Of a DNA stretch of 64,000 bases, positions 35,988-64,000 are shown piece by piece (position 1 is the stretch's first letter; the number at the start of each line of letters is the position of its first letter). The stretch comes from a virus. The translations under genes and the position numbers were made by a program. The notes beneath the pieces were generated by a model that was given only the letters and a program-made list of their open reading frames with translations, made no database searches and was not told the DNA's origin. The stretch lies in the IMG/VR virus record IMGVR_UViG_3300045988_177034; one strand, written 5' to 3'.

Positions 35988-38900
35988 TTACTGCTTCTTT
36001 TCCTCGGTTTTATCTTCGGTCTTTTCAGCAGCTTTTTCTTCGCTATCGCCCTTCTTCTTCTTAACGATGACAAATGCGCCAACGCCAATCAGAGCAACAA
36101 CAACGATAACAGGAACGATGATGTCTGCGCCAAAACCAACGCCAGTCTTGTAGTTAACTACAACAGGTGCCGGAGTGGGAGCAGGTTCATTCTTGACTAC
36201 AGGAGTCGGAGTCGGTCTGCTTTCTTCCGGAGGATTCTCCAGCTTAACGCTTGCTACCCGGACATCGCCGTAGTTGCCTGCCTTATCAACTGTACGGGTC
36301 ACAATGTAACCAGTCCAATCGGGGCTCAGCTTGAAGGTAACGTAACCGTTGTCCTTATCAATGTTTGTAACATTGACAGTCTCGAACTTGGTTTCGTCGA
36401 AGGTGTAATCGCCATCAGCACTCTTGGCAATAGCAGAACCATTGACCTTGTAATACTGAATCTTAGCGACACCGGAGTTGTATTCGCCATCAAGAGCGGA
36501 GATAGCAGGAACGGAATCCTTGACCTTTACAACAGGCACGAAGTCGGGGTCTTCGGTATCATCCTTGCCACCGTTTTCGTCGGGAGTAGCAACGACATCG
36601 TTACCGTTTTCATCACCGGTCTCGTCGCCGGTTGTGAAGAGAGCGGGCTTACCATGAGCAATACGAAGCGTAGTGGCTTCGGTCTTGTCATCGGTTGTTT
36701 CGGTCTTCTCGGACTCGCTGGGAACTTTCTCCTCGGTACCGGATTCGGTTTCATCCTTCTTGTCGGAATCTTCCTTCTTATCGGTATCGTCCTTCTTGTC
36801 GTCTTCCTTCTCAGGTGCCTTGCCGGTCTCTTCACCAGTAATGAACACATTGATGGTGCTCTCGAACTTGACGAACTTCTCGTTCAGCAAATCGGTCTTA
36901 TTGGTGGAATCAACCTTATCGGCAGCGAAAGCAGAAGCAACGACAGGAGCTTCGGTATCAACAGATGTGGTGATAGTTCCCATCTCGGTAATGGCACCTG
37001 TCTTCAGGTCAATCAGGTAATAGGTAGAAGTAACCTTCTCACTATTAGCGGAAATGACCATCTTCTCGGCCCACTCAGCATCGGTCAGGGAATCGCTGGT
37101 TCCGATTGCGTAACCCTTAGGAGCGATAACTTCAACCTTAGAGTTGAAGTACAGGCCACTCAGGTCATCAGTCGTCTTCTTGGTAACCTCAACAGGCTTA
37201 CCGGTCTTTTCGTCAGCCACAGTACCAACGATAGTTGCGGGCTCTACATCGGCAAGATGCAGACGCTGAACTTCGAGGTCTCCGGTGGTAGGCAGGTAAT
37301 TGTAGTTGTCGTAAGCGCCGCCAACATACTTGAAAGCGTCCTTCGTCAAGCCAACATTACCGAAGATACCATCGATGCTGGAAGCAACAATGAGTTCGAA
37401 GGAAGGCAGCTTAACGGTTTCAGCAGTCTCGTCGAAAGCGTAACCACTGGTCTTGATTTCGGGAATTTCCGTCTTGGTGCCATACAGCTTGACGACGGGG
37501 TTCGGGTCGAGAGTAACCGTCAGGTCTTTGCGAGCGATAACGAACTGACCATCGGCTTGGTTCTTATCGGCATCAACGACATTGATTGTTACTGCGTAAT
37601 TCTGCTCAACAGCAGCATCGTAATCAGAGGTAACGGTGTAGGTGTAAGTACCAGCGTTCTTGACATTCTCAGTCTTGAACTGGCTGTCGCTCTCCACGCC
37701 GTCATCGCCGCTTGCGATGTCAGGAGTCAGAGTCGCCTTTGCATCAGCAGTCAAGGGAGCAGTCTGTGCATTGTCGGTGGTCTTGTCATTCTCGAAAGGA
37801 GTATAAACAAGTGCCATCTTCAGGCCCAGAGAATCAGGTTTGACAGCTGCACCGTGTGTACCGTCGCCATTGGTGGCAACAGCATTTACGGTGAAGTCGG
37901 GGTTAGTGGTATCGCCATAGACGATATCCTTGGGCTCGGTGACAGTGACTTCGACCAGACGTTCGCCAATGGTATAAACGCCATTAACAATCGTAATCAG
38001 GTAATCGTCATTGTCGTAAGAACCGACCATGTCGTATGCACCGTAATTCTTGACAGATTCGGGCACGCTCTCCGCAACCAGAGAAGCAGCACCGTCAGCA
38101 GACTTCATGGAAATCTCTTCGGCAACCGCATTCTCAACATCCTTCTGAGTGATGCTGATAATAGCTTTCAGGTCATCGCCATTTACGATGGTCTTCTTAT
38201 CGGCATCGCCAGTATAGGTAAGAGTATTGCTCAGTTCAGCCATTTTATTGCCGTAGACAGAACCAACAGTGCCGATGGTCCAAGTCAGAGGACGCTGAGT
38301 GACCGTGTAAGTGCCGTTCATAGCAGTTACCAGATAATCCTGATAAGAAGCCTGACCGACGCGGTGAGCCAGACCGGAGAAGGAAGGAACAATGTCATAG
38401 CCTCCGACATGGCTTGCAGAAGTGACGAGGCACAGGTTCGTGCCTTCCAGAATATCACCATTGACCAGAGCTGCTTTGGCAGTGTCACCAGTGTATTCCA
38501 GAACGTTCACGGTACCGTAATCAGACCAATCTTCAACAGCAACATCGTCGCCATAGATAGAAGTCTGGGGTTTAGCGGTGACAGTGATGGGACGCTTGTC
38601 GATAACAAAATCAACGGGAGCGTAAACAAAGGTGTAGTTGTTTGCTGCGGCATTCTCAACATTTGCAGGAACGACCTTGCCGGTACCAGCGTGAGAAGCT
38701 ACCGTTGCGGGAGCTCCCTCAGCATCGGTAAAGTTGAAGGTCAGGTTTGCAATGCCCAGGACACCAGCATCATCGGGAGTGGTGTTGCCCTTGACGGGTT
38801 TCACAACGAATCCATCGAAAATCAGGTCGTCGCCGGAGAGAACAGGGTTCTCATCGCCGTAAATCTTGCTCTGAGCTGCCAGAGTGACATTCAGAGTAGC

Positions 38901-41900
38901 AGGAGTGATTTCGAAGGTGTTGTTTACGCGGGTGATGTTGAAGTTGACATCGTCGCCCTCGATAATCATCGGGTGCTTGCCGACATCCTCACCAGCATCG
39001 GTGCCAGCGTCAGGACGAACAACCTTCAGGTTTGCAAGGTCACCTGCATCTTCGCTTACATAGTAAGCGCCGTCGCCAGTTGCAGTCCAAGTCAGTTCGG
39101 GGTCAGCCTCGCCGTAGACCTTCTTCTGGCCTTCGTCAACAACCACGATTACATCGCGCTTATCGACATGCAGAGAACCATCAACAAAGACGATGGGGTC
39201 ATAGTTCTTTGCGCCCTTGTTTTCCAGACCGCTCATGGTGATGACATAATCGCCAGCAGCAGGACGAGCAGGAATCTCGGACAGAGAACCGTCAGCATTC
39301 TTGATGTTGTAGACAACCGAGCCAGTGAATGCGGAAGCAACGGTGTCATTGTTCTTCAGGCCAGTAACGGTGTAGCTGAACGTGGGAACGGTGCCGCCAT
39401 AAATCATGGAGTAACCGCCAGCCACGGTAAAGGTGACCTTAACGGGCTTGATGGTCAGAGTAGCAACTTCCATAGCTTCGGGCTCGGTGGTGGAAGAACC
39501 AACGTCGACGGAAGTGCCGGAGCCAGTCACGATGGTGATGGTGTAGTTACCGTACTTGTTGTACAGAGTAGAGCTGATGGGGTATTCACCGACATCCTCA
39601 CCGGCTTTGCGAGTAACAGAGCCGCTCAGAGCACCAGTAGTCAGTTCCAGCGTATTCTTCTTCAGACCATCGTTGGAAATGTTGCCGGAAATCTCGCTGT
39701 AAGAGAATGCGGGGTCTGCATCGCCGTAATCCTTCTCGTAGTTGGAGAAAGTCAGGGTGATGGGACGAGGAGTGATGGTGAGGGTAGAATCAATCACCGT
39801 CAGGTCGTAGTTGGCAGGCTGTGCGTAGATAGCTTTCAGAGCATAAGTGCCAACGCTTGCGGAAGCAGAAGTTGCACCGGAAGTCAGGGTAATGCCCTTA
39901 AGAATCTTTTCGGCTTCTGCTGCCTGAACATCAGTAGTAGTCAGCAGACCAGTGCCGCCCTTGATGTAATCCTTCACGTTCATAGAAGTGAGGGTCTCAC
40001 CATAGGTCTTTTCGGTTTCGAGCAGGTTGATAACGGCAGTACGCTTATTGATGGTGAAGCGAACATCATTGGTGAAGCTGATACGATAGTTCTTTGCCAT
40101 CGTCTGCTCATAGATGTTACCGCTGTAAATCGGATAAGTGCCAGCGTTCTCGCCTGCTTCACGGCTCAGACGAGCCTGTGCGAAGTCGGCCTTGGGTTCT
40201 GCGAAGCTGGTGGTGTTGTAGTCGAAGATGACATAAGTATCATTGACTGCAAAGCTGGGGTCAGTCTCGCCGTAAGTCTTGGACAGGCCATAGCGAGGAG
40301 TGATGGTCAGGGGCATCTGATGAACAATCAGCATGTTCTTGCCATCGGGCTCAGACAGCTTAACGCTGTTTGCAGGCTGGTTATCCAGACGGAAGGTCAG
40401 GTTGTAAGAACCTGCATCGTACAGACCAGAAGCGTTCGCAGTAGCCTCAACGGCGATACGAACAACGCCCAGAGAAACATCCTTGCCGTCCATCTTGATG
40501 TTGACGGTTTCGCCATCGTGGTAAATCTGAGTGCCATCGGAGGTGTTCACATTGACGGAAACTTCCTTGGCGATGGTATCGGGCTTCTTCTCGCCGTAGG
40601 TAGTCTGCAGAGCGTTGAAGGTGACAGAGACATCAGCCTCGGTGACTTGGAACGTGGCCTGCGGAGCAATCGTTACGATGTAGTTGGGGTTCTCATCATA
40701 GGAGATGGTAGCCTCATAGTTGCCAACAACCGTGGTGGGGTCTTCCCACTTGGTCAGGTCGATGTGGATGTTCAGCGGGCTGCCCTGCGGGTCAACCACA
40801 TTGATAGCCTGAGAACCGGTCTCGTCATACAGCGCATAGCTGGGGGTGTTCTTACCGGCAACGCCGTACTTACGGACGCTGTTGGTAGTACCCTTGATGG
40901 TGACAGGCAGTGCATTGATAGTCAGTGTACCGCTTGTACCATCGCTGTAAGTACCGGTATAAACGATGTTGTAGTTGGGGTTGGTGTAACCGGAAACAAC
41001 GATAGGATAGGTACCGACACCAGTCAGCTTACCAACGGTATTATCAACGCCATACTTGATGGTGACAGTGCCGCCAAGAGAAGCGACGGTATCATGGATG
41101 CCGATTTCATCGTTGCTTGCAAAGTTCTTGTATTCCAGTGCGCCGGTAATGTCGGCATCGCTGGGATTTTCAGAACCATACAGACGCTCACGGTTCGGAA
41201 CGGTGATAGTCAGAGTACGCTTGGTGATAGTGTACTTATCGGGAGCATTGAAGGTGATGTCGTAGTTCTTGGCGATTTCAGCAGTCTGGAACTGTGCATC
41301 GCTGTAAGCGTAAGAACCAACGGTCTCGCCGACCTCACGGGTCACAACGCAGCCAGCAAAGTCGGAACCAACACGGCCGCCCTTGCCATTGACGGGGTCA
41401 AGAGTAAAGGCAACGCCGCCCTTGGCATCACTGTCGCCGTAAACCTTCGTTTGACCACCCATCACATTGATGGCGATAGGACGCTTGGTGACGGTCAGCT
41501 TGCTGTTGACAAAACGAACCAGATAGTTGTCGTAACGGTCGTAGTTCTTGCCATCGGCATTGGGGTCCCAGTCAGAAGACCAACGCTCCTGAGAAGCACC
41601 CTGCACAGATGCGCTGACGGTGTATTCGCCAACATTGGCAGTTGTAGGAGTGCCGCTGTTGCCAGCCGCATCCACCATGGTAAAGCCAAGCTTATCCTCG
41701 GTCAAACCGATGCTTGCCTGTGTATCGTTCAGCTTGAAACCTTCGATGGATTTAATCTTGCCGGAACGAGCAGCGCCATACATTGCGGACAGGTCATCGA
41801 GAGTGACAGTCAGCATTGCAGGATGGATGATGTACTTGCTGTTGATGACCTTAACGTCATAGTAAGCAGTGCATGCAGGGGGAACTTCGACAGTCATCGG

Positions 41901-43931: not shown

Positions 43932-44075
43932 GTTAGTTGCCCTCCTAATAATGTGAGTATTCTGTGGTTTTACCACAGCCGGATTTATATACACCCTTAC
44001 CTACTCCCTAGTGTGCAGCCTCGATTGTAGATAAGAAAGTATATCAAAACACAAGCAATCAAATTGCATATTTAC

Positions 44076-44104
44076 AATATGCCACAAAAAGACAGAAAAG
44101 TCAA
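44076..44104 (-). promoter_or_regulatory. weak family-2-like promoter: TTGACT - 17 nt ending TGTGG - CATATT
   Basis: conserved -35 and spacer, degenerate -10. Confidence 0.3.
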
Positions 44105-44276: not shown

Positions 44277-44308
44277 TAATTATTCTGAAAATTAGAAGCT
44301 TTTTACGC

Positions 44309-44346: not shown

Positions 44347-44359
44347 ATTGTTTTACCGC

Positions 44360-53300: not shown

Positions 53301-56300
53301 ACAATTTCCTTATCGCGAACGGTCAGAGTACCATCCACATACTTGATGATGTAGTTGGCATTGCTGCCGCTGCCATCTTCTGTGTTGATGATAACTGCAT
53401 CGCTGGGAACGTTCTTGCTGGAACCCACTTCGGTCTGAGAACCGGTTACGGTCACAGAATCCATCTTATCGTGAATGCCAAGCAGGTCGTTATCTACGAG
53501 TTCTGGAGCGTAGGTATAGCCGGGTTCCGTCAACGGAGTGCCGTCATATACCTTTTCTGCGGAGTTTGCAGTAATGGTTACCTCACGCGGGTCAATGAAG
53601 AAATGTCCGGGAGTTACTGTGCCAATCTCAATGTTATCTACCTCAGTATAGGTAGGAACAATGGAATAGCCGGGGTTCTCAGTACGAACATTCTCACCCG
53701 GAACACGAGCTGCATCCAGATTCAGGGCACGGTCGATATAATCGCGCAGGTCCTTATCCGGAGTGTAAGGCTCATCTTTCTCGTTCGTGAGCGTATAGGA
53801 AACATTGAACTTATCGGGGTCGTTATCACCGTAGGTCTTGCGGTCGTCTTCTGCCTTGATGTTAATAATCAAGGGTTTAACGGTCAGCTTACCATCGATG
53901 TAAACGAAATCGTAGTTCGGGTTATGGAAAGTAGAATCCTTGGCAGATACAGGATATTCACCAACAGGGCTCCACTTCTCTGCATCAGTCTTGGTCTTGA
54001 GCGCATCTTTACCACCGATATCATCGATGGTGTCACCGCGCTTATAGCCGGTAATGGTTACGTTGGGTGTCGGGTTATCTTCGCCGAAATACTTTTCGTC
54101 GTCAATAACTGTAACAACGATGGTTGCAGGAACAATGGTCAGAGTTCCGGGAGTGGTAATGATTTCGTAGTTGCCGGACGGGTCAGTGCCATCAATGGTG
54201 ATGGGATACTTGCCTACCTGCTCACCGTCATCAGTATCAGCGCCGGGACGCTTTGTGGTGATATCGAAGAAGTCTTCGTCACCGGGATTGACCAGTTCTT
54301 CGGGGTCAGTAATCGTCCAAGTCAGCGGGTCGGGGTCTTTCTCTCCGTAAACCTTCTGCTGGTCATCTGCCTTCACATGGATAGGTTTCTTACCAATCGT
54401 CAGGTCACCGCCAACATAGATAAACTTGTAATTGCTGTTGTCAGCAACCAACTGCTGTCTATCGTAGTTGATGGGATAATTACCAACTTTCGTCTTATTC
54501 GTTACGGGATTGCCAGCGTTATCGTTGCAGTACATTGTAGCAGTGCCGGAAACCTTGGATTCATCGTCCTTGATACCGGTACCTGTTTCGTCCTTAACGT
54601 CACGACCGACAAAACCTGTGATGGAATAAGTGAATTCGGGAATCTCATCGCCGTAGGTGGTCTTGTATCCGCCATCGACCGTAACAGTGAGCGTTGCGGG
54701 GATGATTTTCAGAGAACCATCGTATACGGTAACGGCATAGTTCTTGTTGTTTGTATCGTACTTTGCGGAAATGAGGTAATCACCATCATAGAGGGTAGTT
54801 CCCCACTTATTGAGAGAATCTGCTGCAGTGACATCGCCGCGCACAACATTCTCACCCTTGGTGCGGTACAACTCAACATTCAGCGGGCTGTTTTCGGGGT
54901 CAATCAGGCCAATCACATTGCCAGCATTGTCTTCGTAATGGAAGGTAAATGCCGGGTCAGCAGTGCCGTAGGTCTTGACCTTATGGTCAATGCGAACAAT
55001 CAGTTCCTTCGGGTTGACAGTGATATCGCCATTGACATAGCGGATAACATAGTTCTTCTCGAAGTTTGTGTTGCTCTTGACTTCGAAAGTGGAGCCGATA
55101 TGCTCTTCACCGTCTTCCAGAACAACGCAATCCGGGTTCACCGCATCCTCGTTGTTGTTGCCAGCAGTTACGATGTACTTGCCAGCGTCAGACAGGTCGA
55201 AGCACAGAGTAGCGAAGCCAAGTTCACCGTTCAGAACGGTTTCCTTCGTGTCATCACGCTTGAAGCCGGTAATATCGGCATCAAATGCGGGATTCTCTTC
55301 GCCATAGGTCTTGGAATAGCCACCCTTTACGGTAACAACCAGCTCAGCCGGAGTAATCGTAAAGTTGCCATTCTCCATGGTAATAACGTAGTTGGTGATG
55401 CCATCCTTGCTGACAGGGCTGATATCGTTGGCGTTGATGGCGTAAGCCTTGCCGAACGAATGCTCGCCAGTCCAGACATCCTCACCGGGTTCACGAGTCA
55501 CGCCAGTACCTTCGAGGTCGCCGGGCTGGACAGGCACATCCGCGCCTTCCTTCTCGGTGAGAACGGGACCGTTTGCGTACTCAATGTAGTAGTTGCCATC
55601 TTCGCCACGGACACCGTCATGGAGCGTGTACTTCAATTCGGGGTCAGCGTCGCCGTAAACCTTGGTGTTATCCTCAGCAATAACGGAAACGGGGCGAGGA
55701 ATGATAGTCAGGTTGCCAGCGGTAATCGTGATGTCATCATCATCATAGATGGTGCTGTGGACACCGGACAGGCTAATGCAATCCTTGTAAGTGCCGCTGG
55801 AACTGGTCTGTGTATCCAGATGGGTAAATGTAAAGGAATTGGTGTTGATACCGGCTTCCTCTGCCGTGATTTCAACAGCCTCGCCGTTTTCTACCTTAAA
55901 CACATGATAGGTGTAATCGGTAGAACCATCGTAGAAGCGGTTGACACGGTCGCCGTAATAGCGAACCTTATCATCCACGGTAATCATCAGACCCTGACGC
56001 TTGACAATGAGGTCGTTTGCGTAACGGTACTCAAAGTCGTAGTTCGGGTTATCCAGCTCAAGCTGTTTCTGGTCGTTTGCTGCGAGGTTTCCAATCTGAC
56101 GGTCCTGCGGCGTGGAGTAGACGGGATAAGAACCGACTTCTTCACCCTCTGCACGAACCAGATTGAAGACGATGGGAACCTTATCGGGGTTCACAACAAC
56201 GCTTGCATCCGTGATACGGCTGCCTGCGCCGAGCTTCTGCTGACCATTTACGGAATTATGGGTAATCATATCGGTCAGGGTGAAATCCTGAACCTTATCA

Positions 56301-59300
56301 GCATCGCCCAGTTCCTTCTGCCAGCCAGTGACTTCCAGCAGCATCGGACGAGGTTTGATAGTCAGAACACCGGGTGTGTAGTTCGCAATCGTATAGTTAT
56401 AACCGCCATCTGCGTTTTCACGAGGTACGAGAATCGTATGCTCTTCGCAGTAACTCTTATCGCCATACAGGTAGTTGGAGCCAACATCGGTGTACTTATT
56501 GTAAGTCAGGTTGATGTAATCGCTCAGAGTATTCTTTGCGGTTTCAAGAACCTTTGCGGTTGCGCCATCGTTATTCTTCAAAGCAACATCAGCAGTATCG
56601 CCGTGCTTCAAGCCAACAACGGTCAGCGTGTAGTCGTTTTTGTTATCTTCGCCGTAGTAACGCTCCTGATTACTAAATACGATTGTCAGCGGGACAGGCG
56701 TAATGGTCATCTTGGCGTCGTTCGTTTCGACGATATAGTTGCTTGCTGTGCTCTTTTCGTAAGAGATACGGATGGTATAGCCTTCGTCACGGACATTCTC
56801 GCCGCTGTCACGAACTGCCTTGATGCCGAGCATTTCGCTGGTAGGCTTAATGATTTCGCCATCGACAGTCCACTTCAATGCGGGTTCCGTGCCGCCGTAT
56901 GCCTTCGTTGCATCGAGAGCCGCAATGCGAATCAGACGAGGATGTACTTTCAGAACATTGGACTCGTAAACGAGTTCGTAGTTGGAAACTACCTGTCCTT
57001 CACTGTTCGTGACGGTCTTGATGCCAAGAGTATTGCCGTAACCGGTGTTTTCGTTCACGGATACAGGATATCCGTTTACGGGAACATGGGTATGCGGATG
57101 GTCATCGTCATGATAATGCTCATGACCCTTGTGCATTTCGTTGTATTTCTCCAAGCAGTAAGCGCATTCTTCTTCAGGAACATCCGTCTGATAGATTACA
57201 TCACTGCTCTGTGTAGCGGTTGTCAGATAAGGCAGATTAGAAGTGCCGTTCTTGAATGCCAGAGCGGTGCGGGAAGCGCCGTTTACGACTTCAACCACAT
57301 TACCGATGGTATCATTACCAATCAGATGCATGTTGTTGTAATCAACGGTAGCGTCATCGCCCAGAACGGTCCAGTTGTTTTCGTCCGAAACATCCAGTTC
57401 ATTGCCTTGGTCATCTGTGCCAAGAACCTTGAATGTGGAGTTGAAGAACGGGTTCGTTGTACCGTAAATCTTCTGGCTTTCGTCAACGGAAATCATAATC
57501 TTGCGGGGCTTGACCTCGATAGAACCGGGGTCTTCCGTGACAACATAGTTCTTCAACACATCATAGTTGAATTCGTTCAGACCAATGTAAGATACGGGGT
57601 AAGAACCAGCATCTGTTGTCTCACTCGGTACTACATTGTAAACGAACTTGCTCTGATAGTTGTTTGTTTTCTTCGCTTTCAGGTCGAGTTTTTCATCGTC
57701 CTGTGCAGCAGTCTTATGGTCTTCGACCAGACCTTCCATGGTCAACCAGCTGTCAGAACCCTTATTCCAGTAGTAGACATCGTCTGCATACGGAAGCTTG
57801 ATGTTCTTGAAACCGTGTCCATAAGTGGTGCTTACGCTCTTGACCTGCGCACGCAGCGTCGTACGGTAAATACCACCGCTGAAAGTCTTGTCTGCGATAT
57901 AGTAGTCGTTGTAGTTGTTGTTCACAAGGTACATTTCGTTGTTCTGCTCAATGTCACGTACCAGTGCGTTCGTATCATCGATATCCTGTACAGTGTACTC
58001 AAATTCGATGTTTACGGTACCGCCGACCGGAATCGTGTCAATGTAGAACTCTGTGCCCTGCTGGTTCATACGAATGCCATTGGTGGATTTCAGAGTGATG
58101 GGGCCATTGCCTGCAAATCTGCTCTTGAGACGCAGGTTCTGGATAGCAACAGGAGCAACATAGTTATTCTGCGCGGCCAGACCATATCCGGTATCCTTGT
58201 TCGTAACTGCAATCGTAACAGTCATCTTCTGACCAACCTGCGGGGTGGTCGTGCTGTAGCTGTACTTTACAGAATACGGCAGATGGCGAATCGTATTCGT
58301 CGAAAGACCATTGTAACGGTCTTCCTTGATGACACCATTGTCGCCGTTTGCATCATACCCGGTCAGCTGTTCGCCAGCATTGCTGTCAGCATAAGAACCA
58401 ACATAGGTCTGAGCATTCAGTTCAACGGAATCGTAGTTGGTGATATTATCAATATAGATATTTCCCTGTCCTTCTTCACCGATATTGGCGTTGTAGTAGG
58501 AATCATATACCTTGATGTTGTTCGGATTCACTACCGTGTTCTGGTAGTTATCCTGTTCGGTCTTGGTATAGCGGGTAATATCGATGTTTTCCTGTTTACC
58601 AGCAAGAATCATTTCATATGCCTGCTCGATAGTCACATTCTGATTATCGTAGACAGTCGTGTCGGTCAGATACTTGCCGTTTCCGATATCATTGGAGTTA
58701 CCATCGTAGTTCCACTTGTATTTGTTCACATCATGATACTGACTGTGAACATACAGAGGACGAGGATTGATGGTACCAGTGAAATCTTCACTTGCAATAT
58801 AATAGTTGTCGAACGGGTTGTTAATCAGTTCAAGAATCGTAACGGTCTTAATACTGTGCAGACCCGTATGGATGGACTCTCTGAAACTCGTCTTTGCGAA
58901 GTCCTCAGGAGCATAGTTTTCGCAATAATAGCCGTAAGCCAGTGTGCTGTTCAGCGCGACAGTATCGCCGTGAACAATACCGGAATCAGCAGTTGCTGCT
59001 TTGATTTTAATATCAGATACCTTTGCGGTGCTGATATTGTCGTAAATCTTATTGTTGTCATAGCTGTAAAGATGCAGCGGGCGCGGATAAATATCGAAGT
59101 ATACGACATTACCGTTGCCGGATACATATTCATCAGGTGTAGTGCTTTCGCCACGGACTACATAAGTTTTGCCGGGCTTCGTGTTCTCCCAGCAGAAAGT
59201 AACTTCGTACTTGCCCGTGTAGGTTGCCGTAGCAGTGTAGGAACCGGTACGAACGAGAGGCTTCTTCTTGCTATCGGTAGTAGCGTTTGTAGGATATGTG

Positions 59301-62300
59301 ATGTTGGGAGATTCGTTGTTCGAATAGGTGATGTTTACGCCGCGCAGGATTTCCTGCTCATCGATACCTGCATCGGTATCGCCGTCCCATACAACGTGTG
59401 CGGTAACAGTCAACTGGTTGCCGTCGTACATCTTATTAGCAACAGTCAGCATGACCTTGGCACGAGTAGGAGTGCATTCGTTTGCATCCTCGAAGCCAAT
59501 ATCCATTGCGTTCTTGCCAACGCGACGATACAGACGCTTATTCAGGTCAACAACCTTGATTTTTGCACGACCAGCCTGGCCAATACCGGAACCGGCACCG
59601 TCATTCAGCTGGTTTGCACCAGTGACGTTTGCTTTAATGATGATGTTGCCGTTGTCAAGGTTTGTACCAACAGAAGCGGCATAAGAAGAACCACGCAATG
59701 CACCATCGGTAGAAGCAGACTGCCAACCAGAACCGCCGCCGTTTTCGTGCAGTGTGTTGTTGTAGCCTTCCTCGTCTTCTCGCTGCATTTTGATATCACT
59801 GCTGTGGGTGCCACTGTAAGTCCAGCCACAGATATCGCCATGATGGTATTCGTAGCCGTCGCTGAAGACCTTGTCTTCCTTTAATGCACAGTGATAACGC
59901 TGACCACTGTTGTTTGAACCGGAACCACCGACACCGCGCGTGGTGTATCCGTTGCCGGAAATTATCGCAGCACCGGAACCACCGCCAGCAACGCCGAACA
60001 TCGGCGAGCCGTCACCGTAGTTTTTCAGCTGTCCATCGCCGATAAGACCAAAAGCAACCGTGGTAGCGCCACCACCACCGCCAAAGCCTATGGGAGAATT
60101 GCTGTGGTAGCTGTGGTCAGGGTCGCCTCCCCCTTTATAGCAGTCATAGAACACTGCGCCGACACCACCGGAACCACCGCCGTTATAGCCACCGGAACCA
60201 CCGGAACCACTGCCGGTAGAACCGCCACCGGAACCACCACCGGAACCGCCACCGCCTGCACCGCCAGCGACAAAGTAGAGGGTCGTGCCTTCCTTAATGT
60301 CTGCTGTGATAATGGTGTGGCTGCCGGAGTTGCCGCTGATACCATCTGTCATACTTGCATTGCCGCCGCCAGCACCCCACAGGTCAATCTGATAGGTTGC
60401 ATCGAACGGAGCGGTCCAAGAAGAAGTGGGATTGTTTCCGTCATTGGCTTTGAACGACTTGTCGGCCGCACGAACATTCTTTTCATCGATGTAGAAGAAA
60501 ACCTGTTCGTTGGTGCCGTCAAACTCTTCCATGTCGTAGCAATGATACTGGATAGCATTGCGCCAGAACCATTGCCAGATTTCCTTCGGGTAAGAATAAT
60601 CGGACCATAATGCATAGCCGTGGTCCAGATAAGGCGCATAGTCCTCGTTGTTCTTGTCCAGATATCCGCGTTCATCGAGGGAAATGCCAAGTTCAGCCAT
60701 CGTCTTGCCCTGAACATCAATCTGAGAAGGATTGCCGTTCATGTCATAACGAGTAACGGTTGTCATTTGTCCACGATACTGAGTACCGAGATTGACGCTC
60801 AGATGGTCACTCTGGTTAAACACAGTACGAGAAGTGTCTCTGTGCTTGCCATACGGGAACTCATTCACAATCTGATAGCGGGACATAATGTACCGAAGTC
60901 CATTAGGCGCTTCAATTGTCAGTTCGGGATACATGAAAATAGAGTGCTTATCAACGCCGCAACTAACAAGATTGCGCTCGTTTGCATGGATACTGATATT
61001 GTAATCCAGCCACAACTCTGCACCAGTGTCTGTGTTATCTTCATCGATACCGCCGTTCACATAGTCAAAGTTATGAGCAAGGGTATTTGTGATTGTCTGA
61101 CTCTTCAGTTTCGTGCTGTTGTAGCCGCGAATGTATTCCAGATACGGCTTGCACTGGAAATAGAAGTGCTCAGTACCGAAGTCCATCGGGTTCGTTGCGG
61201 ATTCAATGTGCAGGCTTGTGGTAATGCTCCACTTAGCATATGCACTATTGATGTCAAACGGCTGACCATTCAACATCGTATCCTCAACAGGTTTGATATC
61301 ATCAATGGTGATGTAGGCGGTGAACTTGCCGAACGGAGAACCAGAGTGTTCAGTTTCGATTGCGTCCACGACCTGCTTCATCACAGAACTGTCATCTGTA
61401 TTGATGTCGTATCTGGTTTTGACGATATTTGCCCAGTCTTTGTAGTTTTCGGTAGTCAAACCGTTACCGTTGTTAGCGTACCCGTTGATATTGATGGGAG
61501 CAATGACGGGCTTGTACTCTGTGGATGTAGAATTCAAGTCGTCTTGGAAACCCCACTGCAATACAGGGATAAGGATACGGTTTCCGGATTCTGTCAATTT
61601 GCTGGGAGAGAATGTGATAGTCGTTGTATAAACGGCCACGTTCTTATCAGAAATCAACGGGTTATTGGAATCGCCTCTGCTGGCATTCCAGTTATCCACT
61701 TGGTCTTGCGTTGTCTCAACAGACCAGTAATTCTGACCAAAATCGCCAGTCGCATCGCCCTCGCTGTTATGCTCCTGCATCATCAATGCACGAGCTTCCA
61801 GCATGGTTGCGGAAACGAAAGGTGCATCGACCTGCAACAGGCCATAACGGGAAGTGTCGAATCCTGCGTTGTCAGCATCACCGATTGCGCTGTAGGAGTT
61901 CTCGACCTTGGTTCTCTTTTCGTTAAAGCGATAGCTTGCAACGATACGGAAATAATATCCGGACCAGTTGTAATCTGCCGCGTGCAGGGTAAGGGTGATA
62001 GTAGTGTGTTTCTGAGCACACTGCTGGTCAGTGAAACCATCAGGACGCCAGAAATCAGCAGGCAACCATTTGTTGTCATGAATCATACTTGCGGTCTCTT
62101 TCCCCTTTGCGAGGGTATCGACCGTATGTGCTTCAATGTCAACCTTGTTTACCTGACTATTATCTACGGTATTCAGTGTATAAGTACCGCCGAATGTAAC
62201 GGATGTGGCAAGAGTCTGCCAATCGTCATCATAGGGGTCTTTGTACTGAACATCGTAGCTGTAGCCCTTATCATCAAGGCCCTTCCAGTAATCTGTTTCA

Positions 62301-64000
62301 AATACAAAGGTTGCTTCGTCCTGAGTCATAACACGCTGATTCGGTGCCTGCGTCATGGACATGGGGCGCTCTTCGATTTGAATGATACCAGAAGCTTCCG
62401 GAGTGATTACGCCGGGGTCGATGGTGGAATAAGTTTTGCCCTCAACCTCGTAATCTGTACGAAGCTGAATAGCGTTTCCTGTATATGCCAGCATTTGCAG
62501 CTGTACATCCACGGAACTGTGCGGGTAATTGTATACACCATCATTGCCGTCGTGGAATACCGGCGTTTTGATGATACCTGTTACGGCACCGTCTTCGGTA
62601 GTGAACTGACCGTAATGACCAATCTTGACCCAGTCGCTCAGAGCATTACTGGTATTGCGCAGGTCAACCACGCGGTAATACCATGTTACGGATTCATTGC
62701 TGATGGGCTGATTGTAGATGATACCGGAACCTTCGAGAACCTTAGTGGTCTCGCCTTCCCAGTAACGGTAGTTCTCAATAGGTGTTGCTTCGATTGTCAG
62801 CAGTTCCAGAGGAACCGTTTCGCAGTCGTTCCAGAAATGAGGAGGAACCTTTGCAACGATAGGACCGTATTTGGTGACCTCATTGCCAGCCTTGTCATAT
62901 ACGCGGGCACGAAGAATCGTTTTGCCGCCTACGTAAATACAGGGAAGGTTAGAAATACAATACTGGTCTACGTTGTTGACTACGCAGCTGAAGTCGTCGC
63001 CTTCCTGCAGCAACGCAGTGTTGTCCTCGTACCGGATATGAACGGTATATCCCTCGTGAATCTGACCATCGTTGAACAACTTTGCGTCGCTCAGCTTGCC
63101 GTAGATACGAGCGATACCGGTGGTACGAACGGACGGAGAGCTGTTACCGCTGTCCTTAAAGACAGTGTCCCAGCCCTTGGACTTATCAGTGCCAAGGTTC
63201 CAGTCGTTGCCGTCTCCGGTACGATATGCACCCAAATCACCGGTGGTGTTATCGAACAGAGCACCGTCTTTGGGAACTTTTACATCGAAGTATTTGCTGT
63301 TCCAGTGACCTGTGAAGTTCTTGATGGGCTTCCAAGTCGTGGAATCAAAGCCCAGCTTCGTCAGGTCGAGGTCTTCCATCAGTTCGTAGCAATCGCTCAG
63401 AGGATACCAGTAGCTGCCGCCGTTGGCGAGAGCTGTCAGAATCTTCTTGGCGTTTGCTGCATTGACACGATGGACAAAGTGCGTCATCTGCTGGTCGGCT
63501 TGGTCAGCGGCACAGACTTCACACTGCTTGCGCTGAGAAATCCACATCAGGGTGTTGACGCAAAGCTGCATCTCCTCAGAAGAAGCGTGGTTGATTTGAC
63601 GACCACCTACTTCAATCGGCAAGTGACCAATCTGGTTCATAACAAAGTTGCCGGAACCAGCCAGATAGAAGTTATTAGTGCCGCTGCGTCCATCAACGGT
63701 GGGTTCATACAACTTGCCAAGTCCAGCATTTGTAAACACGCTAGAGCATCCATTGTATTGAACCCAGATGTCATCGAATGCGACCTGACCATTACTGTGC
63801 GTCAGAGCAGCAGGAATCGTCTGCCCTACACTGAACTTATAAGGCCAGTTGGTTGGTGTACGATGCTTGATGTCGGGGTTGACCATTGCCTCTTCGTATG
63901 TGAAACCGCCGTTAGAACGGATACGTAAGGAGGTGCTGCCGTATATAGTAGTCTTCAAGAACGGTCCATGGGAACCACCGGAAGACATGATAGCGGAAGG
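44360..64000 (-). CDS. giant cell-surface adhesin 2, 5'-truncated by the window edge (more than 6542 aa): beta-rich N-terminal region, Gly-rich segment, MBG repeats, long array of DUF11-type repeats, Pro/Thr linker, C-terminal transmembrane anchor
   Basis: frame open from 63988 to the window end with no ribosome-binding site, so the N-terminus lies outside; repeats of the form TIVKSADKT.A.PGEVVTYTVT.HN and MBG motifs KVYGDADPELKYT; C-terminal SNKKTGIGF plus hydrophobic helix plus HKRKK tail. Confidence 0.9.
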   Translation of the reverse strand, partial: PSAIMSSGGSHGPFLKTTIYGSTSLRIRSNGGFTYEEAMVNPDIKHRTPTNWPYKFSVGQTIPAALTHSNGQVAFDDIWVQYNGCSSVFTNAGLGKLYEPTVDGRSGTNNFYLAGSGNFVMNQIGHLPIEVGGRQINHASSEEMQLCVNTLMWISQRKQCEVCAADQADQQMTHFVHRVNAANAKKILTALANGGSYWYPLSDCYELMEDLDLTKLGFDSTTWKPIKNFTGHWNSKYFDVKVPKDGALFDNTTGDLGAYRTGDGNDWNLGTDKSKGWDTVFKDSGNSSPSVRTTGIARIYGKLSDAKLFNDGQIHEGYTVHIRYEDNTALLQEGDDFSCVVNNVDQYCISNLPCIYVGGKTILRARVYDKAGNEVTKYGPIVAKVPPHFWNDCETVPLELLTIEATPIENYRYWEGETTKVLEGSGIIYNQPISNESVTWYYRVVDLRNTSNALSDWVKIGHYGQFTTEDGAVTGIIKTPVFHDGNDGVYNYPHSSVDVQLQMLAYTGNAIQLRTDYEVEGKTYSTIDPGVITPEASGIIQIEERPMSMTQAPNQRVMTQDEATFVFETDYWKGLDDKGYSYDVQYKDPYDDDWQTLATSVTFGGTYTLNTVDNSQVNKVDIEAHTVDTLAKGKETASMIHDNKWLPADFWRPDGFTDQQCAQKHTTITLTLHAADYNWSGYYFRIVASYRFNEKRTKVENSYSAIGDADNAGFDTSRYGLLQVDAPFVSATMLEARALMMQEHNSEGDATGDFGQNYWSVETTQDQVDNWNASRGDSNNPLISDKNVAVYTTTITFSPSKLTESGNRILIPVLQWGFQDDLNSTSTEYKPVIAPININGYANNGNGLTTENYKDWANIVKTRYDINTDDSSVMKQVVDAIETEHSGSPFGKFTAYITIDDIKPVEDTMLNGQPFDINSAYAKWSITTSLHIESATNPMDFGTEHFYFQCKPYLEYIRGYNSTKLKSQTITNTLAHNFDYVNGGIDEDNTDTGAELWLDYNISIHANERNLVSCGVDKHSIFMYPELTIEAPNGLRYIMSRYQIVNEFPYGKHRDTSRTVFNQSDHLSVNLGTQYRGQMTTVTRYDMNGNPSQIDVQGKTMAELGISLDERGYLDKNNEDYAPYLDHGYALWSDYSYPKEIWQWFWRNAIQYHCYDMEEFDGTNEQVFFYIDEKNVRAADKSFKANDGNNPTSSWTAPFDATYQIDLWGAGGGNASMTDGISGNSGSHTIITADIKEGTTLYFVAGGAGGGGSGGGSGGGSTGSGSGGSGGYNGGGSGGVGAVFYDCYKGGGDPDHSYHSNSPIGFGGGGGATTVAFGLIGDGQLKNYGDGSPMFGVAGGGSGAAIISGNGYTTRGVGGSGSNNSGQRYHCALKEDKVFSDGYEYHHGDICGWTYSGTHSSDIKMQREDEEGYNNTLHENGGGSGWQSASTDGALRGSSYAASVGTNLDNGNIIIKANVTGANQLNDGAGSGIGQAGRAKIKVVDLNKRLYRRVGKNAMDIGFEDANECTPTRAKVMLTVANKMYDGNQLTVTAHVVWDGDTDAGIDEQEILRGVNITYSNNESPNITYPTNATTDSKKKPLVRTGSYTATATYTGKYEVTFCWENTKPGKTYVVRGESTTPDEYVSGNGNVVYFDIYPRPLHLYSYDNNKIYDNISTAKVSDIKIKAATADSGIVHGDTVALNSTLAYGYYCENYAPEDFAKTSFRESIHTGLHSIKTVTILELINNPFDNYYIASEDFTGTINPRPLYVHSQYHDVNKYKWNYDGNSNDIGNGKYLTDTTVYDNQNVTIEQAYEMILAGKQENIDITRYTKTEQDNYQNTVVNPNNIKVYDSYYNANIGEEGQGNIYIDNITNYDSVELNAQTYVGSYADSNAGEQLTGYDANGDNGVIKEDRYNGLSTNTIRHLPYSVKYSYSTTTPQVGQKMTVTIAVTNKDTGYGLAAQNNYVAPVAIQNLRLKSRFAGNGPITLKSTNGIRMNQQGTEFYIDTIPVGGTVNIEFEYTVQDIDDTNALVRDIEQNNEMYLVNNNYNDYYIADKTFSGGIYRTTLRAQVKSVSTTYGHGFKNIKLPYADDVYYWNKGSDSWLTMEGLVEDHKTAAQDDEKLDLKAKKTNNYQSKFVYNVVPSETTDAGSYPVSYIGLNEFNYDVLKNYVVTEDPGSIEVKPRKIMISVDESQKIYGTTNPFFNSTFKVLGTDDQGNELDVSDENNWTVLGDDATVDYNNMHLIGNDTIGNVVEVVNGASRTALAFKNGTSNLPYLTTATQSSDVIYQTDVPEEECAYCLEKYNEMHKGHEHYHDDDHPHTHVPVNGYPVSVNENTGYGNTLGIKTVTNSEGQVVSNYELVYESNVLKVHPRLIRIAALDATKAYGGTEPALKWTVDGEIIKPTSEMLGIKAVRDSGENVRDEGYTIRISYEKSTASNYIVETNDAKMTITPVPLTIVFSNQERYYGEDNKNDYTLTVVGLKHGDTADVALKNNDGATAKVLETAKNTLSDYINLTYNKYTDVGSNYLYGDKSYCEEHTILVPRENADGGYNYTIANYTPGVLTIKPRPMLLEVTGWQKELGDADKVQDFTLTDMITHNSVNGQQKLGAGSRITDASVVVNPDKVPIVFNLVRAEGEEVGSYPVYSTPQDRQIGNLAANDQKQLELDNPNYDFEYRYANDLIVKRQGLMITVDDKVRYYGDRVNRFYDGSTDYTYHVFKVENGEAVEITAEEAGINTNSFTFTHLDTQTSSSGTYKDCISLSGVHSTIYDDDDITITAGNLTIIPRPVSVIAEDNTKVYGDADPELKYTLHDGVRGEDGNYYIEYANGPVLTEKEGADVPVQPGDLEGTGVTREPGEDVWTGEHSFGKAYAINANDISPVSKDGITNYVITMENGNFTITPAELVVTVKGGYSKTYGEENPAFDADITGFKRDDTKETVLNGELGFATLCFDLSDAGKYIVTAGNNNEDAVNPDCVVLEDGEEHIGSTFEVKSNTNFEKNYVIRYVNGDITVNPKELIVRIDHKVKTYGTADPAFTFHYEDNAGNVIGLIDPENSPLNVELYRTKGENVVRGDVTAADSLNKWGTTLYDGDYLISAKYDTNNKNYAVTVYDGSLKIIPATLTVTVDGGYKTTYGDEIPEFTYSITGFVGRDVKDETGTGIKDDESKVSGTATMYCNDNAGNPVTNKTKVGNYPINYDRQQLVADNSNYKFIYVGGDLTIGKKPIHVKADDQQKVYGEKDPDPLTWTITDPEELVNPGDEDFFDITTKRPGADTDDGEQVGKYPITIDGTDPSGNYEIITTPGTLTIVPATIVVTVIDDEKYFGEDNPTPNVTITGYKRGDTIDDIGGKDALKTKTDAEKWSPVGEYPVSAKDSTFHNPNYDFVYIDGKLTVKPLIINIKAEDDRKTYGDNDPDKFNVSYTLTNEKDEPYTPDKDLRDYIDRALNLDAARVPGENVRTENPGYSIVPTYTEVDNIEIGTVTPGHFFIDPREVTITANSAEKVYDGTPLTEPGYTYAPELVDNDLLGIHDKMDSVTVTGSQTEVGSSKNVPSDAVIINTEDGSGSNANYIIKYVDGTLTVRDKEIVSIEKSADRERATDYDVIRYTITVTNATSHDLHNVIVKDTNNFVGVPVLSQANGVTYDAEKGEFVIAEISHLRDETHNNAVTFTYTYTVDPTDHGTNNNDILENNAKITDMKVVESYTENPDGSTTPNYTEPNKDWLVETPDVDVEIIRQNLTIEKSADKTEAGVGDVVTYTLKVTNTGNTKLENVVVKDTNNFMGEPVENTKLHFGYRVNDDGTWTITSLGVGKSVTITYKYTVVADDLANGKLDNIATATIPAREDPTIPEKPVDSNEVIVPLYYKHLTIVKSADRDHAYPGEVVKYQVTVTNDGTVDMTNVTVSDDTNALGMFIVSTGDGYTYNPETRLFTIPALNVGDSVTLNYLYIVQNGDPETIINVATAHAPKNPDTEIPGDKDIEEPSKPVEVDVLRDELTIVKNADKGFVDMNGNDTTVTYTLTVKNSGNTKLTNVIVTDTSNGNGTVEYTGDLMYDGNGKWMIPELNAGESVEITYIYTAVAEDMNLDNGNIVNTAVAEGKNPDNKTVTSDPDTETVHVGEVPDRDIRVVKTSLESSVMIGDTIHYTITVTNNGAMTAQNVVVRDFNDGIGEINAASSDKYTYDAATHSFTIAEIAAGEVVEIPVTYTVQEGDKGTVNNAAVEIPEVPEIEKKADKQTVVVGEVVTYTITVTNTTNETKTNVEVKDTNNFTGVITPAENTDVVSYIGDKVWNISSIGAGESVDIVYTYTVMNEDAPNTMLVNNAEMTYVTDSGKVKIPSNEVDIPVIPETPTPEHVGPTVVKQADKAIANIGDTVHYTVVMHNNDTVDYVNAALHDKNNFNGVITNVKNGTLESASAGSAVIKVGTIPAGKTVTVEYDYIVLNTDAGKGQDTYNELKNVATLHYWFADEDQTPENEKTKPSNEVTVKVPGSDVPVPVNPPEGKLKVEKFVDKKSASVGDMLHYTVKVSNVGDGELKNILVEDFFDGHGKLNYIPTVGVVVNGDGTYTINKLPAGTFMELRFTYVIVEGDEPEVLNAAVVTTPPVDPPLEPTKTADKKFAFVDEIVTYTISVYNPDTKAKTNVTVKDTNNFVGSINAANTDKYTYNGDNTWTIPEIGAGETIDITYTYTVQSNDEKLLENKADVTYSENGDTVKLDTPTVDVVVPDKGTVSIHKEADKKMAKPGEVVTYNVTVTNNKGFDVHDVVVTDANNFAGEITGVDGADYTFENGEFHIAEIAAGASVTLTYTYTVEIGDVPTQILENIATADVPGTNPEDPNNPGHGKDPNKPIDNDEKIPSNPVDVEVPGSETETKIPDLVLTKSVDKNEAVVGDTLNYTITVKNNGKGDAENVTVKDFFDGKGTLNFVAMDGVTDNGDDTYTIASVKAGESVTLNFTYVVVDGDAPEVLNAAVITTPEPPTDIVKSADKHIAKVNEIVTYTITVKNNSKDTLTNLLVSDMNNFKGEIEAKDGKGYTYNGDKTWTIATLESGKSIDITYTYTMQASDETVIENTADVRYSHNGTDYDIPSNPVEVEKPNDGVVTIFKTADKTKAEPNEVVTYTVTIHNGKDYDIKNVRLTDANNFAGKIEGVDGAGYKFTNGEFVIDKIPAGGDAVVRYTYTVQIADVPTKILENIATAHVPGKTPGDPDEEIPSNKVDVEVPGDGTHVDVPEGKLEIVKSVDKTEAKVGDTLNYTITLTNVGGQAVKNAVVKDFFDGNGVLNFVPMDGVTDNGDYTYTVANVEKGQSITLRFTYTVVAGDAPMVLNAAVVKDPTPPVDIEKTADKHVAMVDEVVNYTITVKNTTDKTVTDLLVSDTNNFTGAITSKDNAKYTYNGNHTWTIPSIKAGESIDILYTYTVKTTDPSTLVNEADVRYTTDDGEYVIKADPVEVVVPKDGEVTIVKSGDKKIAEPGEVVTYTVTIHNGKAHDITNVVVSDSNNFAGTITGTNGVGYKFVDGHFVIDKVAAGADAVLTYTYTVQIADVPTHILENVATAHVPGTNPEDPDTDIPSNKVEVEVPGSEVETEIPEISITKSVDKPTAKIGDTLNYTVTVKNGGNADAENILIKDFFDGNGTLNFKAMDGVTDNGDNTYTISTVKAGESVKLRFSYVVVEGDEPLVLNAAVIKDPTPPVDVEKEADKHIAKVDEVVIYTISVKNTTSEPVDNVTVTDTNNFKGEIKAENADKYTYNGNKTWTIPTIAAGETIHITYTYTMQAEDATVIENIANVTYSKDGTDYNIPSNPVDVEKPDDGVVTIRKAADKTKAEPGEVVTYTVTVHNEKNHDIENARLTDTNNFAGEIVSVDGADYTFENGEFTINKIPAGGDVVIHYTYTVEIADVPTQILENIATIHVPGTNPEDPNNPGHGKDPEKPIDPDTEIPSNKVDVEVPGSETETEIPVIEITKSVDKAEAKVGDTLNYTVTVANKGKADAENVVVEDFFDGNGTLNFVSMDGVADNGDNSYTISTVKAGESVTLNFTYVVVTADAPKVLNAAVVKDPTPPIDVEKDADKYIAKVTDVVTYTITVKNTTDETVNDITVADHNNFAGDVTAESSNRYTYNGDGTWTIGYLDAGEALDIVYTYTVETTDESVMENTATIKYTHDGEQYNIPSNTVDVKKPDDGVVTIWKSANKTVAKPGETVTYTVTVHNGKDHDIQNAALTDENNFSGSIFAVDGAGYHYENGVFTIDTIPAGGDVVVHYAYTVGIADVTTHILENVATIHVPGTNPEDPENPGQGKDPTKPIDPDTDIPSNKVDVEVPGSGTETDIPLEKSLTIVKSADKTKVNVGETINYRVVVTNTGEVDLVNVTVKDNNDGASHIEAQNGDGYTYNSATTTFTIARIPVGESFTLTYSYVAVDADAGHDVINVAVAKAPGQNPEDPENPGHGKDPSKPIDEDVEKPSNEVKVPVVKPSTPTTPDEPKPTPTPDNPKPTPTPVPTEKPKTPPIGWLDIFKVDGKPFSLFSIFTSNKKTGIGFAQSIVGLVAMVGIGVAALVVVNHKRKKDENDNKDNHKDDSAE
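45100..50550. repeat. tandem array of 5 or more units of about 1.07-1.1 kb inside giant gene 2, each encoding about 360 aa (three DUF11-like modules)
   Basis: a recurring nucleotide signature (ggaac(c/t)tc(a/c)aca/tcgac...ttggacggaat...ccgggaacatg...gttttc(a/c)agaat) appears at about 45135, 46240, 47345, 48415 and 49480; the protein units begin (V/I)KDPTPP(V/I)D(V/I)EK.ADK. Confidence 0.7.

Follow-up and report, generated by a model that had tools for sequence, protein, structure and literature searches.

Hodor plasmids, conjugative megaplasmids of the human gut, were described in a recent preprint as two groups, G1 and G2, whose mean size is about 357 kb and which programs for detecting viruses wrongly class as viral (Yuan et al., bioRxiv, February 2026, PMC12934698). 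They are reported from over 9000 metagenomes of gut and wastewater, and the 38 genomes that were curated, which include two from long-read datasets, encode a giant uncharacterised protein of 7309-7704 amino acids (aa) followed by three downstream genes, one of which encodes about 2642 aa (PMC12934698). In the giants, the preprint describes MBG (YGX) and 'S-layer' domains as well as signal peptides and sorting signals at the C-terminus; it lists a hypothetical protein, SecY, SecG, SecE, trigger factor and a class B sortase as neighbours, and found the giant gene co-transcribed with three neighbours in a metatranscriptome (PMC12934698). The giant genes are among the few common to both plasmid groups, between which VirD4 and VirB4 are only about 40-48% identical (PMC12934698). 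Fibrillar adhesins have been characterised independently: their stalk domain DUF11, now renamed CLIPPER, is CnaA-like and stabilised by isopeptide bonds (Costa et al., Protein Sci 2025, PMC12617251). On conjugative plasmids, the surface adhesins PrgB (aggregation substance of pCF10) and TIE (pLS20) raise donor-recipient contact (PMC7726212, PMC8092201). Here we examined a 64,000-nucleotide (nt) stretch of IMG/VR virus record IMGVR_UViG_3300045988_177034 (the window; coordinates refer to it unless another contig is named), in which two adjacent minus-strand genes, gene 1 and gene 2, occupy almost half of the DNA (28.0 of 64 kb), as an original prediction made from the letters alone had stated.

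We read the two giant proteins as fibrillar surface proteins of a Hodor megaplasmid, and place the probability of this reading, including the scheme of export, anchoring and binding set out below, at roughly 0.6. Parts of it are firmer. The predicted architecture of gene 2, with a signal peptide, a distal head, a tandem-repeat stalk and an envelope anchor, is with high confidence that of a fibrillar adhesin. Given the transcription evidence of the preprint (PMC12934698), we hold with high confidence that the giant proteins are made. From their sequences we infer, again with high confidence, that both are exported through Sec and attached to the envelope.

The window was assigned by sequence to a Hodor conjugative megaplasmid of type G2. 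The exact gene 1 protein was found on a Logan contig from ERR3451245, which is the preprint's sample for Hodor10, a G2 plasmid. As in the Hodor surface module, adjacent genes of more than 7300 aa and about 2640 aa carry signal peptides and sorting signals. The exact SecY protein of the window was present in 3628 index blocks of public assemblies, with gut-metagenome contigs of up to 354 kb; gene order around SecY was the same on six contigs of 205-354 kb, and IMG/VR 'viral' contigs of 240-389 kb carried the exact SecY as well. A megablast of positions 1-25000 against phage and plasmid collections gave no match, and a GTDB genome scan with SecY found no relative.

Element and genes are the same as those of the preprint, and nothing essential differs: the two giants and their Sec, foldase and sortase neighbours were already known (PMC12934698). 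The locus is therefore a correct re-detection of a published feature, to which we add annotation and a hypothesis of recipient recognition. Beyond the main text of the preprint are the ALK-GRD-type and ThuA-like head domains, the count of CLIPPER triads, the codon-bias account of the antisense open reading frames (ORFs), the hairpins between co-transcribed genes, the lipoprotein nature of the 'trigger factor', a frameshift lineage and the mosaic divergence between groups. The interpretation given in the original prediction is supported in part. The expectation of giant surface-protein genes on a mobile element was borne out, the element being a conjugative megaplasmid. To call adhesion the main cargo of that element was an overstatement, since about 8% of the length of a plasmid of about 350 kb is taken up by the two genes.

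Gene 1 (35988..43931, minus strand) is supported by its ORF, its domains and intact copies elsewhere. In the program-made ORF list it appears as 35988..43994; the ATG lies at 43931, 9 nt after an AGGAGG (43946-43941), which agrees with the predicted product of 2647 aa with its own ribosome-binding site. Gene 2 was represented by the minus-strand ORF 44360..63988. Its 3' 19.6 kb (44360..64000) hold the last 6542 codons, with a TAA stop at 44362-44360 and a frame that stays open to the window edge. Its N-terminus had been placed beyond the window, and extension with the database protein P0001 and with IMG/VR contigs recovered the missing 766 aa, which begin MQKGKTWQRVASAVLAVMMTMSTFSSTIAYA and include a signal peptide. 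Full-length gene 2 encodes 7308 aa on the Logan contig named above for its exact gene 1 protein, and 7321-7324 aa on three IMG/VR contigs. The signal peptides start MQKGKTWQRV... in the 7308-7324-aa protein and MQKPRKRF... in the 2647-2651-aa protein.

Gene 2 contains many similar repeats, and shorter versions (2066 aa) exist in databases; both would be expected if the giant ORFs were assembly chimeras of shorter repeat-rich paralogs. We therefore compared the window with overlapping loci merged from three IMG/VR contigs of three different metagenomes. All three carried an intact gene 2 (7321-7324 aa) and an intact gene 1 (2650-2651 aa), with 98.5-99.4% amino-acid identity to the window proteins, and the differences in length were short in-frame linker indels. 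The sole long internal DNA repeat was a unit of 1062-1107 nt comprising three DUF11 domains, present in five copies at 45.1-50.7 kb. These copies were 66-83% identical, a divergence too great to lead an assembler astray. Tandem Repeats Finder reported short Gly- and Pro-rich repeats only, the super-repeat of about 1.1 kb being beyond its reach. The 2066-aa form was due to one specific 1-nt deletion common to three samples, not to collapse, and the 7309-7704 aa of the 38 curated genomes, two of them long-read, are in agreement with intact giants (PMC12934698). On the divergence of the repeats and the shared in-frame architecture of three independent contigs, the chimera explanation, the one outcome named in advance as fatal to the original prediction, was rejected, and its probability is negligible.

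The same contigs identified the coding strand. Substitutions between window and contig fell overwhelmingly at sense third positions (one comparison gave 341 at position 3, 47 at position 1 and 30 at position 2). Synonymous and nonsynonymous changes in the sense frame stood at 333:52 for gene 2 and 144:20 for gene 1, and the same substitutions read in the codon-aligned antisense frame gave 30:355 and 7:157. As these substitutions are mostly synonymous in the sense frame and almost all nonsynonymous in the antisense frame, the minus strand codes and the antisense frames are unconstrained.

This bears on two long stop-free frames of the plus strand, one of 2209 codons (35949..42578, codon-aligned with gene 1) and one of 4154 codons (47420..59884, codon-aligned with gene 2). 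Their length could suggest real or additional genes. Because both frames share the codon boundaries of the sense frame, an antisense stop requires a sense TTA, CTA or TCA; these codons make up 1.16% (119/10228) of 39 other minus-strand ORFs of the window, and at that background the probability of 4154 clear codons is about e^-48, far beyond chance under the neighbours' codon usage. Against this, the giants avoid every rare codon and not TTA, CTA and TCA alone. The latter numbered one in the 2648 codons of gene 1 and five in the 6543 of gene 2 (6/9191 together), and ATA, CCA, CAA, AGA, AGG, CGA, CGG, GGG and TCG were equally depleted. Third-position A fell from 20% to 9-12% in the giants, and GC content was about 50% in the giants versus about 45% in their neighbours (35988-63988 versus 127-35859, minus strand). 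In addition, domain matches, signal peptides and anchors all lie on the minus strand. Coding antisense ORFs were rejected on the substitution pattern, and we give plus-strand genes practically no credence: the open frames are a by-product of extreme codon optimisation, since avoidance of all rare codons, TTA, CTA and TCA included, keeps them open. The original prediction had these frames correctly as non-coding artefacts and erred on the cause, which it took to be repeat composition. Codon optimisation probably serves processive, accurate translation of the 8- and 22-kb mRNAs, on which it would limit ribosome stalling, drop-off and mistranslation.

Further antisense ORFs of 339-475 aa lie opposite SecY and other genes (14489-15691, 32962-34389, 1398-2540, 24179-25198 and 31215-32255, plus strand). 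TTA, CTA and TCA are scarce element-wide (1.16%), and given this the plus-strand ORFs of the window are probably artefacts.

The gene 2 part of the window opens within the head. The C-terminal half of a ThuA-like/GATase1-like alpha/beta domain (63329..64000, minus strand, approximate limits) showed the His, Asn and CxxC that are invariant in its family, and tandem Ig-like (V-set-like) domains (61832..62794, minus strand, approximate limits) were placed by a structure model. That model covered residues 426-1500 of full-length gene 2, was built from 33 homologues and had a predicted local distance difference test score (pLDDT) of 71. It was structurally similar to solved ThuA-like and class I glutamine amidotransferase-like proteins, with Ig-like domains following. 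A Pfam scan gave zero matches to known adhesive domains in the head, and the resemblance of this region to PrgB (8beg) was of a generic Ig-like kind and no closer.

A glycine-rich domain of ALK/LTK-GRD (PF12810) type was placed at 59531..60415 (minus strand). The Gly-rich stretch GGGSGGGSGGGSTGSGSGGSGGYNGGG, announced at about 60.1-60.3 kb, was found inside it at 60173..60253. Sequence searches of head and glycine-rich domain against the PDB were uninformative before profiles were used, and a word-index homologue search with the glycine-rich domain gave three matches, swamped by low-complexity words. A five-sequence profile of the domain had a single match in the PDB, SCD-2, which is the ALK homologue of C. 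elegans (7lir, E 0.0037). Precomputed PF12810 (ALK_LTK_GRD) matches were present in the aligned relatives P0007, P0009, P0010 and P0069 and in an ORF beside P0020. On this profile match and these relatives, the Gly-rich stretch is predicted to be part of a folded ALK-GRD-type domain, of a ligand-binding kind, and no flexible spacer. In structure comparison the closest structures after ALK were distal phage tail proteins (model pLDDT 48.7).

The remainder of gene 2 consists of a region of MBG (YGX-type) modules (53309..59491, minus strand), with one DUF11-like domain inserted at 57947-58240, and a stalk of 23 tandem DUF11/CLIPPER (and DUF7507) Ig-like repeats (44807..53290, minus strand). Pfam matched MBG_2 (PF18676, YGX type) to 6+1 stretches of gene 2 and seven of gene 1. 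In the C-terminal half of gene 2 it matched DUF11 (PF01345) to 23 stretches (E 1.8e-242, 789 bits versus a gathering cutoff of 24.6) and DUF7507 to 20, with further matches to DUF7927, DUF7619 and CARDB, and the NCBIfam isopeptide-domain model TIGR04226 matched four stretches of gene 2. Iteration of our own hidden Markov models (HMMs) recognised 24 repeats of DUF11 type in gene 2 and, in either giant, no fewer than nine modules of MBG type. Conservation was at least 80% in each of the Lys, Asp and Asn columns of the isopeptide triad, and the full set of residues for these putative bonds is retained in 23 of the 24 repeats. The MBG, DUF11 and Gly-rich modules named in the original prediction were thus found, with MBG and DUF11 confirmed by Pfam; the MBG accession is PF18676, not PF17883 as suggested, and no Pfam model of the Big or Cna_B domains also suggested matched the giants. 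PGHGKDP-like linkers recur between the super-repeats and are the main sites of length variation; near 47400 (gene 2 residue about 5530) the window copy is without a 15-aa linker segment, DPENPGHGKDPDKPI, that is present in three other G2-type contigs.

Gene 1 is laid out more simply on the minus strand. A typical signal peptide, MQKPRKRFLSAIVAVAMCLSQFAPVTAYA (43845-43931), is followed by a Ser/Thr-rich region, by MBG-type modules at about 38124-42446 (Pfam MBG_2 and our own HMM iteration), by an acidic Lys/Asp/Glu-rich region and then by a Pro-rich linker. The motif NYKTG (36141-36155) comes next, with a transmembrane helix, KKKK and a charged tail.

Both giants end alike: a Pro-rich linker, N[YK]KTG[VI]GF, a hydrophobic helix, a basic patch and a charged tail. 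In gene 2 this anchor (44363..44806, minus strand) comprises a Pro/Thr-rich linker, NKKTG (44498-44512), the hydrophobic helix, HKRKK and an acidic tail. Class B sortase signals are of the NPQTN or NPKTG type, with NVQTG also found, and precede a hydrophobic stretch that has a short, positively charged tail after it. N[YK]KTG, which is not a proven sortase motif, resembles these signals. In the putative class B sortase signals of the giants, NYKTG and NKKTG with the patches KKKK or HKRKK, N is followed by a residue other than Pro, and behind the helix both anchors have a charged tail of 21-24 residues, partly acidic (36060-36155 and 44363-44512, minus strand).

A module for export, folding and anchoring lies outside the giant-gene span (11361..15424, minus strand), with all five preprint-listed genes present: SecY (14084-15424; TIGR00967), a SecG-like gene (13814-14068, a weak assignment), SecE (13566-13883, a clear one), a trigger-factor-like FKBP lipoprotein (12344-13507) and a divergent class B sortase of 323 aa (11361-12332). 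The plasmid SecY scored 330 bits with the canonical model TIGR00967 (cutoff 253.6) and 147 bits with the SecY2 model TIGR02920, below its cutoff of 249.6; the closest solved structures were ordinary bacterial SecY proteins. An accessory SecA2/SecY2 system was rejected, since SecY passes the canonical model and fails the SecY2 models. The 'trigger factor' carries a lipoprotein signal, MKKNGKVILAVISAACIALTAC, with the lipobox L-T-A-C. It is without the ribosome-binding N-domain, and TIGR00115 matched it over profile positions 108-371 only, with a score below cutoff. Its lipoprotein signal and missing N-domain suggest that it is probably a membrane-tethered foldase outside the cytoplasm, with a PrsA-like role, and not a cytosolic ribosome chaperone.

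To compare plasmid groups, we set the window (G2 type) against L019, which belongs to the other Hodor group and has a SecY 90% identical. Divergence of gene 2 was mosaic. In the CLIPPER array silent-site changes were 0.04-0.08 and amino-acid identity 0.96-0.99; the corresponding values were 0.18-0.28 and 0.93-0.97 in the distal MBG region, 0.33-0.36 and 0.87-0.91 in the proximal MBG region, and 0.36-0.46 and 0.85-0.88 in the ThuA-like part of the head. The glycine-rich domain was the hotspot and the least conserved part, with 0.43-0.50 and 0.45-0.67. The low silent divergence of the stalk, set beside VirD4 and VirB4 identities of about 40-48%, indicates that the two groups, deeply diverged as they are, have recently exchanged stalk DNA by recombination.

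A second kind of variation was seen in a frameshift lineage (L024, L025 and L026), in which three independent sources (ENA, JGI and Logan) share an identical 1-nt deletion at the start of the glycine-rich domain, near window position 60290 (GCAGAC-TCAAGG versus GCAGACATTAAGG in the window). This lost nucleotide breaks gene 2 up into two ORFs, one of 2066 and one of 5226 aa; the 2066-aa ORF lies at 3001-9201 in L024 and L025 and at 1462-7662 in L026. As the deletion site is not a simple repeat, phase variation is unlikely, and the frameshift looks like an inherited mutation.

A HMMER scan of 1.84 billion cluster representatives found 67 proteins with the gene 2 head, 44 of them at E <= 1e-30. 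Short fragments aside, these relatives are very large proteins in which the head starts about 650-900 residues from the N-terminus. Their C-terminal parts vary and contain a glycine-rich domain, YDG/MBG, C-type lectin or NlpC/P60 domains. Of the three contexts inspected, one was another Hodor-like element, which carries a ParM-like gene, Dam and a sortase; the others were a chromosome and a position beside type IV secretion system (T4SS) genes.

The proposed scheme is as follows. The giants would be exported through the Sec channel, possibly through the plasmid's own copy, and would fold outside the membrane with the aid of the tethered foldase. Sortase B or their own transmembrane helix would fix them to the envelope, from which fibres on the order of 100 nm or more would protrude. 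The distal head of gene 2, with its ThuA-like, Ig-like and ALK-GRD-type glycine-rich domains, would do the binding.

Several observations count against this reading of the giants. The sortase has the FGHS and LSTC motifs, and its TIGR03064 match (E 5.9e-22, 78 bits) is below the NCBIfam cutoff of 153.75; the Pfam Sortase model did not match it. The sorting signals are atypical in their long charged tails, which make anchoring in the membrane instead of sortase linkage possible, so that the giants may remain membrane-anchored. For the glycine-rich domain, Pfam PF12810 gave no match at E <= 1 over 59489-60601, and the structure model is of low confidence at the pLDDT given above. Neither Pfam nor NCBIfam matched a PrgB-type polymer adhesin domain in the giants, and a thioester domain was also not found. 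A split gene 2 circulates, and intact fibre appears not to be needed for plasmid persistence. Finally, one head relative is chromosomal, among housekeeping genes, and the family is not restricted to conjugative elements.

What the fibres bind is a question on which we hold a tentative preference, with the odds somewhat short of even: the surface of other Bacillota cells, such that binding would promote donor-recipient contact in conjugation. Four lines favour a bacterial target. The giants are in the small core common to both plasmid groups; the predicted fold of the glycine-rich domain is otherwise seen at phage tail tips; this domain diverges fastest (45-67% identity versus 96-99% in the stalk); and Gram-positive conjugative plasmids use surface adhesins such as PrgB and TIE (PMC7726212, PMC8092201). 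The distant head relative that adjoins T4SS genes is a further pointer to bacterial targets.

A different target would be met if the fibres were colonisation adhesins for gut mucus, dietary fibre or host cells, as the original prediction proposed, and the plasmid spread through a niche trait. The human-gut habitat fits this, as do the tandem CLIPPER/DUF11 stalks, typical in fibrillar adhesins of host-associated microbes, the C-type lectin or NlpC/P60 domains of some head relatives and the chromosomal location of one. Yet Pfam scans recognised no mucin-, collagen- or carbohydrate-binding module in the giants, phage tail proteins, which make contact with bacterial envelopes, are the structures nearest to the glycine-rich domain after ALK, and the giants are shared by both plasmid groups (PMC12934698). 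Contact between bacterial cells suits the plasmid setting and the phage-tail-like binding domain no less well. We consider colonisation a serious rival, though less likely than not. Still less probable, to the point of being doubtful at best, is a protective or excluding coat against phages, other donors (surface exclusion) or host factors. The great length of the proteins, the strong codon optimisation, which suggests abundant or costly expression, the 'S-layer' domain matches of the preprint (PMC12934698) and the precedent of PrgA surface exclusion would suit a coat. A passive coat, however, would have no need of an elaborate conserved head with a fast-diverging binding-type domain, and Pfam matched no S-layer homology (SLH) domain in the giants.

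If the fibres do bind other Bacillota, a more specific and distinctly speculative proposal is that the glycine-rich domain binds a cell-wall glycopolymer of the target and so sets conjugative host range, the fibre being a recipient-recognition organ. SecYEG, tethered foldase and sortase B would then form a dedicated line for a 7300-aa substrate, and stalk DNA would be exchanged between groups while heads diverge, as with phage tail-fibre tips. The identity of the target of the 7300-aa fibre could reveal the host range and spread of Hodor plasmids, and of the prophages they carry, among Bacillota. That a mobile element carries translocon, foldase and sortase of its own beside substrates of extreme size also makes the export and folding of such proteins testable.

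Transcription signals around the giants were then compared with the co-transcription reported in the preprint. A terminator-like hairpin after gene 2 (44308..44346, minus strand; hairpin 44346-44317) has 13 bp (8 GC) and a run of nine T, with -25.1 kcal/mol and z = -5.4, as expected of the strong terminator predicted at 44309-44346. The intergenic region before gene 1 (43941..44276, minus strand) contains, besides the AGGAGG, sigma-70-like sites at 44276-44249 and 44104-44076; these promoter-like sites are weak, with 9/12 matches. After gene 1 come a terminator-like hairpin (35915..35948, minus strand; -25.6 kcal/mol) and a strong promoter-like site, TTGACT-17-TATAAT (35908-35880, minus strand). 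A further hairpin follows the gene of a 219-aa lipoprotein (34972-35001, minus strand; -21.0 kcal/mol), with a near-consensus promoter-like site at 34954-34926 (minus strand). All three hairpins have a T-run and z from -5.4 to -6.3, and near-consensus promoter-like sites precede both small downstream genes. These hairpins and promoter-like sites fit a simple operon poorly; they would be compatible with co-transcription if termination were partial or were read through.

The two small downstream genes (34352..35811, minus strand) are those that the preprint found conserved and co-transcribed with the giants (PMC12934698). They encode the 219-aa lipoprotein (35152-35811), which is acidic, has the lipobox FVGC and gave no family match, and a 183-aa multipass membrane protein (34352-34903). 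Next to them, a 401-aa protein (33124-34329, minus strand) has a signal peptide and a C-terminal transmembrane helix, and gave no family match. The 219-aa lipoprotein and the 401-aa protein may be accessory parts of the surface module.

The other neighbours in the window are nearly all on the same strand and mostly without a Pfam match; recognisable were a Dam methylase, a ParM/Alp7A-like actin (24209-25318; Pfam), SPFH, radical SAM, SecY, SecE and the FKBP/trigger-factor-like protein. Hodor replicons exceed 300 kb and encode Rep_3, ParA, ParB, ParM and a T4SS; the genes for Rep_3, ParA/B and the T4SS lie beyond the window. PHROGs, applied to ten neighbouring proteins, recognised a partition protein and a single family whose function is not known, and nothing else. 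Pfam gave no match on ten further small ORFs, including the plus-strand ORF 7133-8236, a suspected TnpB. An IS605-family TnpB/OrfB insertion was seen between two genes upstream of SecY in the Hodor copies L006 (7068-8171) and L007 (7070-8170), on the minus strand in both, and was absent at the corresponding position in the window and in L002-L005.

The accessory Sec system (SecA2/SecY2) exports serine-rich repeat adhesins of streptococci and staphylococci. Hodor plasmids are like it in that a second translocon copy is encoded near very large surface adhesins. They differ in their canonical SecY, in the absence of SecA2 and Asp genes from the window and in substrates that are not serine-rich glycoproteins. 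The glycine-rich domain has its probable counterparts in the ALK/LTK glycine-rich domain (PF12810; 7lir, 7ls0, 7lrz), whose solved fold is a TNF-like core with glycine-rich segments and from which it differs in lying inside a bacterial surface fibre and in a Pfam match that is not significant, and in phage distal tail proteins with an ALK-GRD fold, Bxb1 gp33 (9d93) and the Pam3 fibre (7ypx), a likeness drawn from a model of low pLDDT.

Gene 2 is several times larger than typical CLIPPER fibrillar adhesins (PMC12617251), has a long MBG region added and shows no known adhesive domain in its head. With them it shares the signal peptide, the non-repeat head, the CnaA-like DUF11/DUF7507 stalk with Lys, Asp and Asn, and the C-terminal anchor. 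Unlike PrgB and TIE, the Hodor giants have no detected polymer adhesin or thioester domain, and they are 2 to 6 times longer. Like PrgB and TIE, they are plasmid-encoded, with predicted Sec export, envelope anchoring and Ig-like or Cna-like stalks, and it is by analogy with adhesins of this type that a role for the giants in conjugation is suggested.

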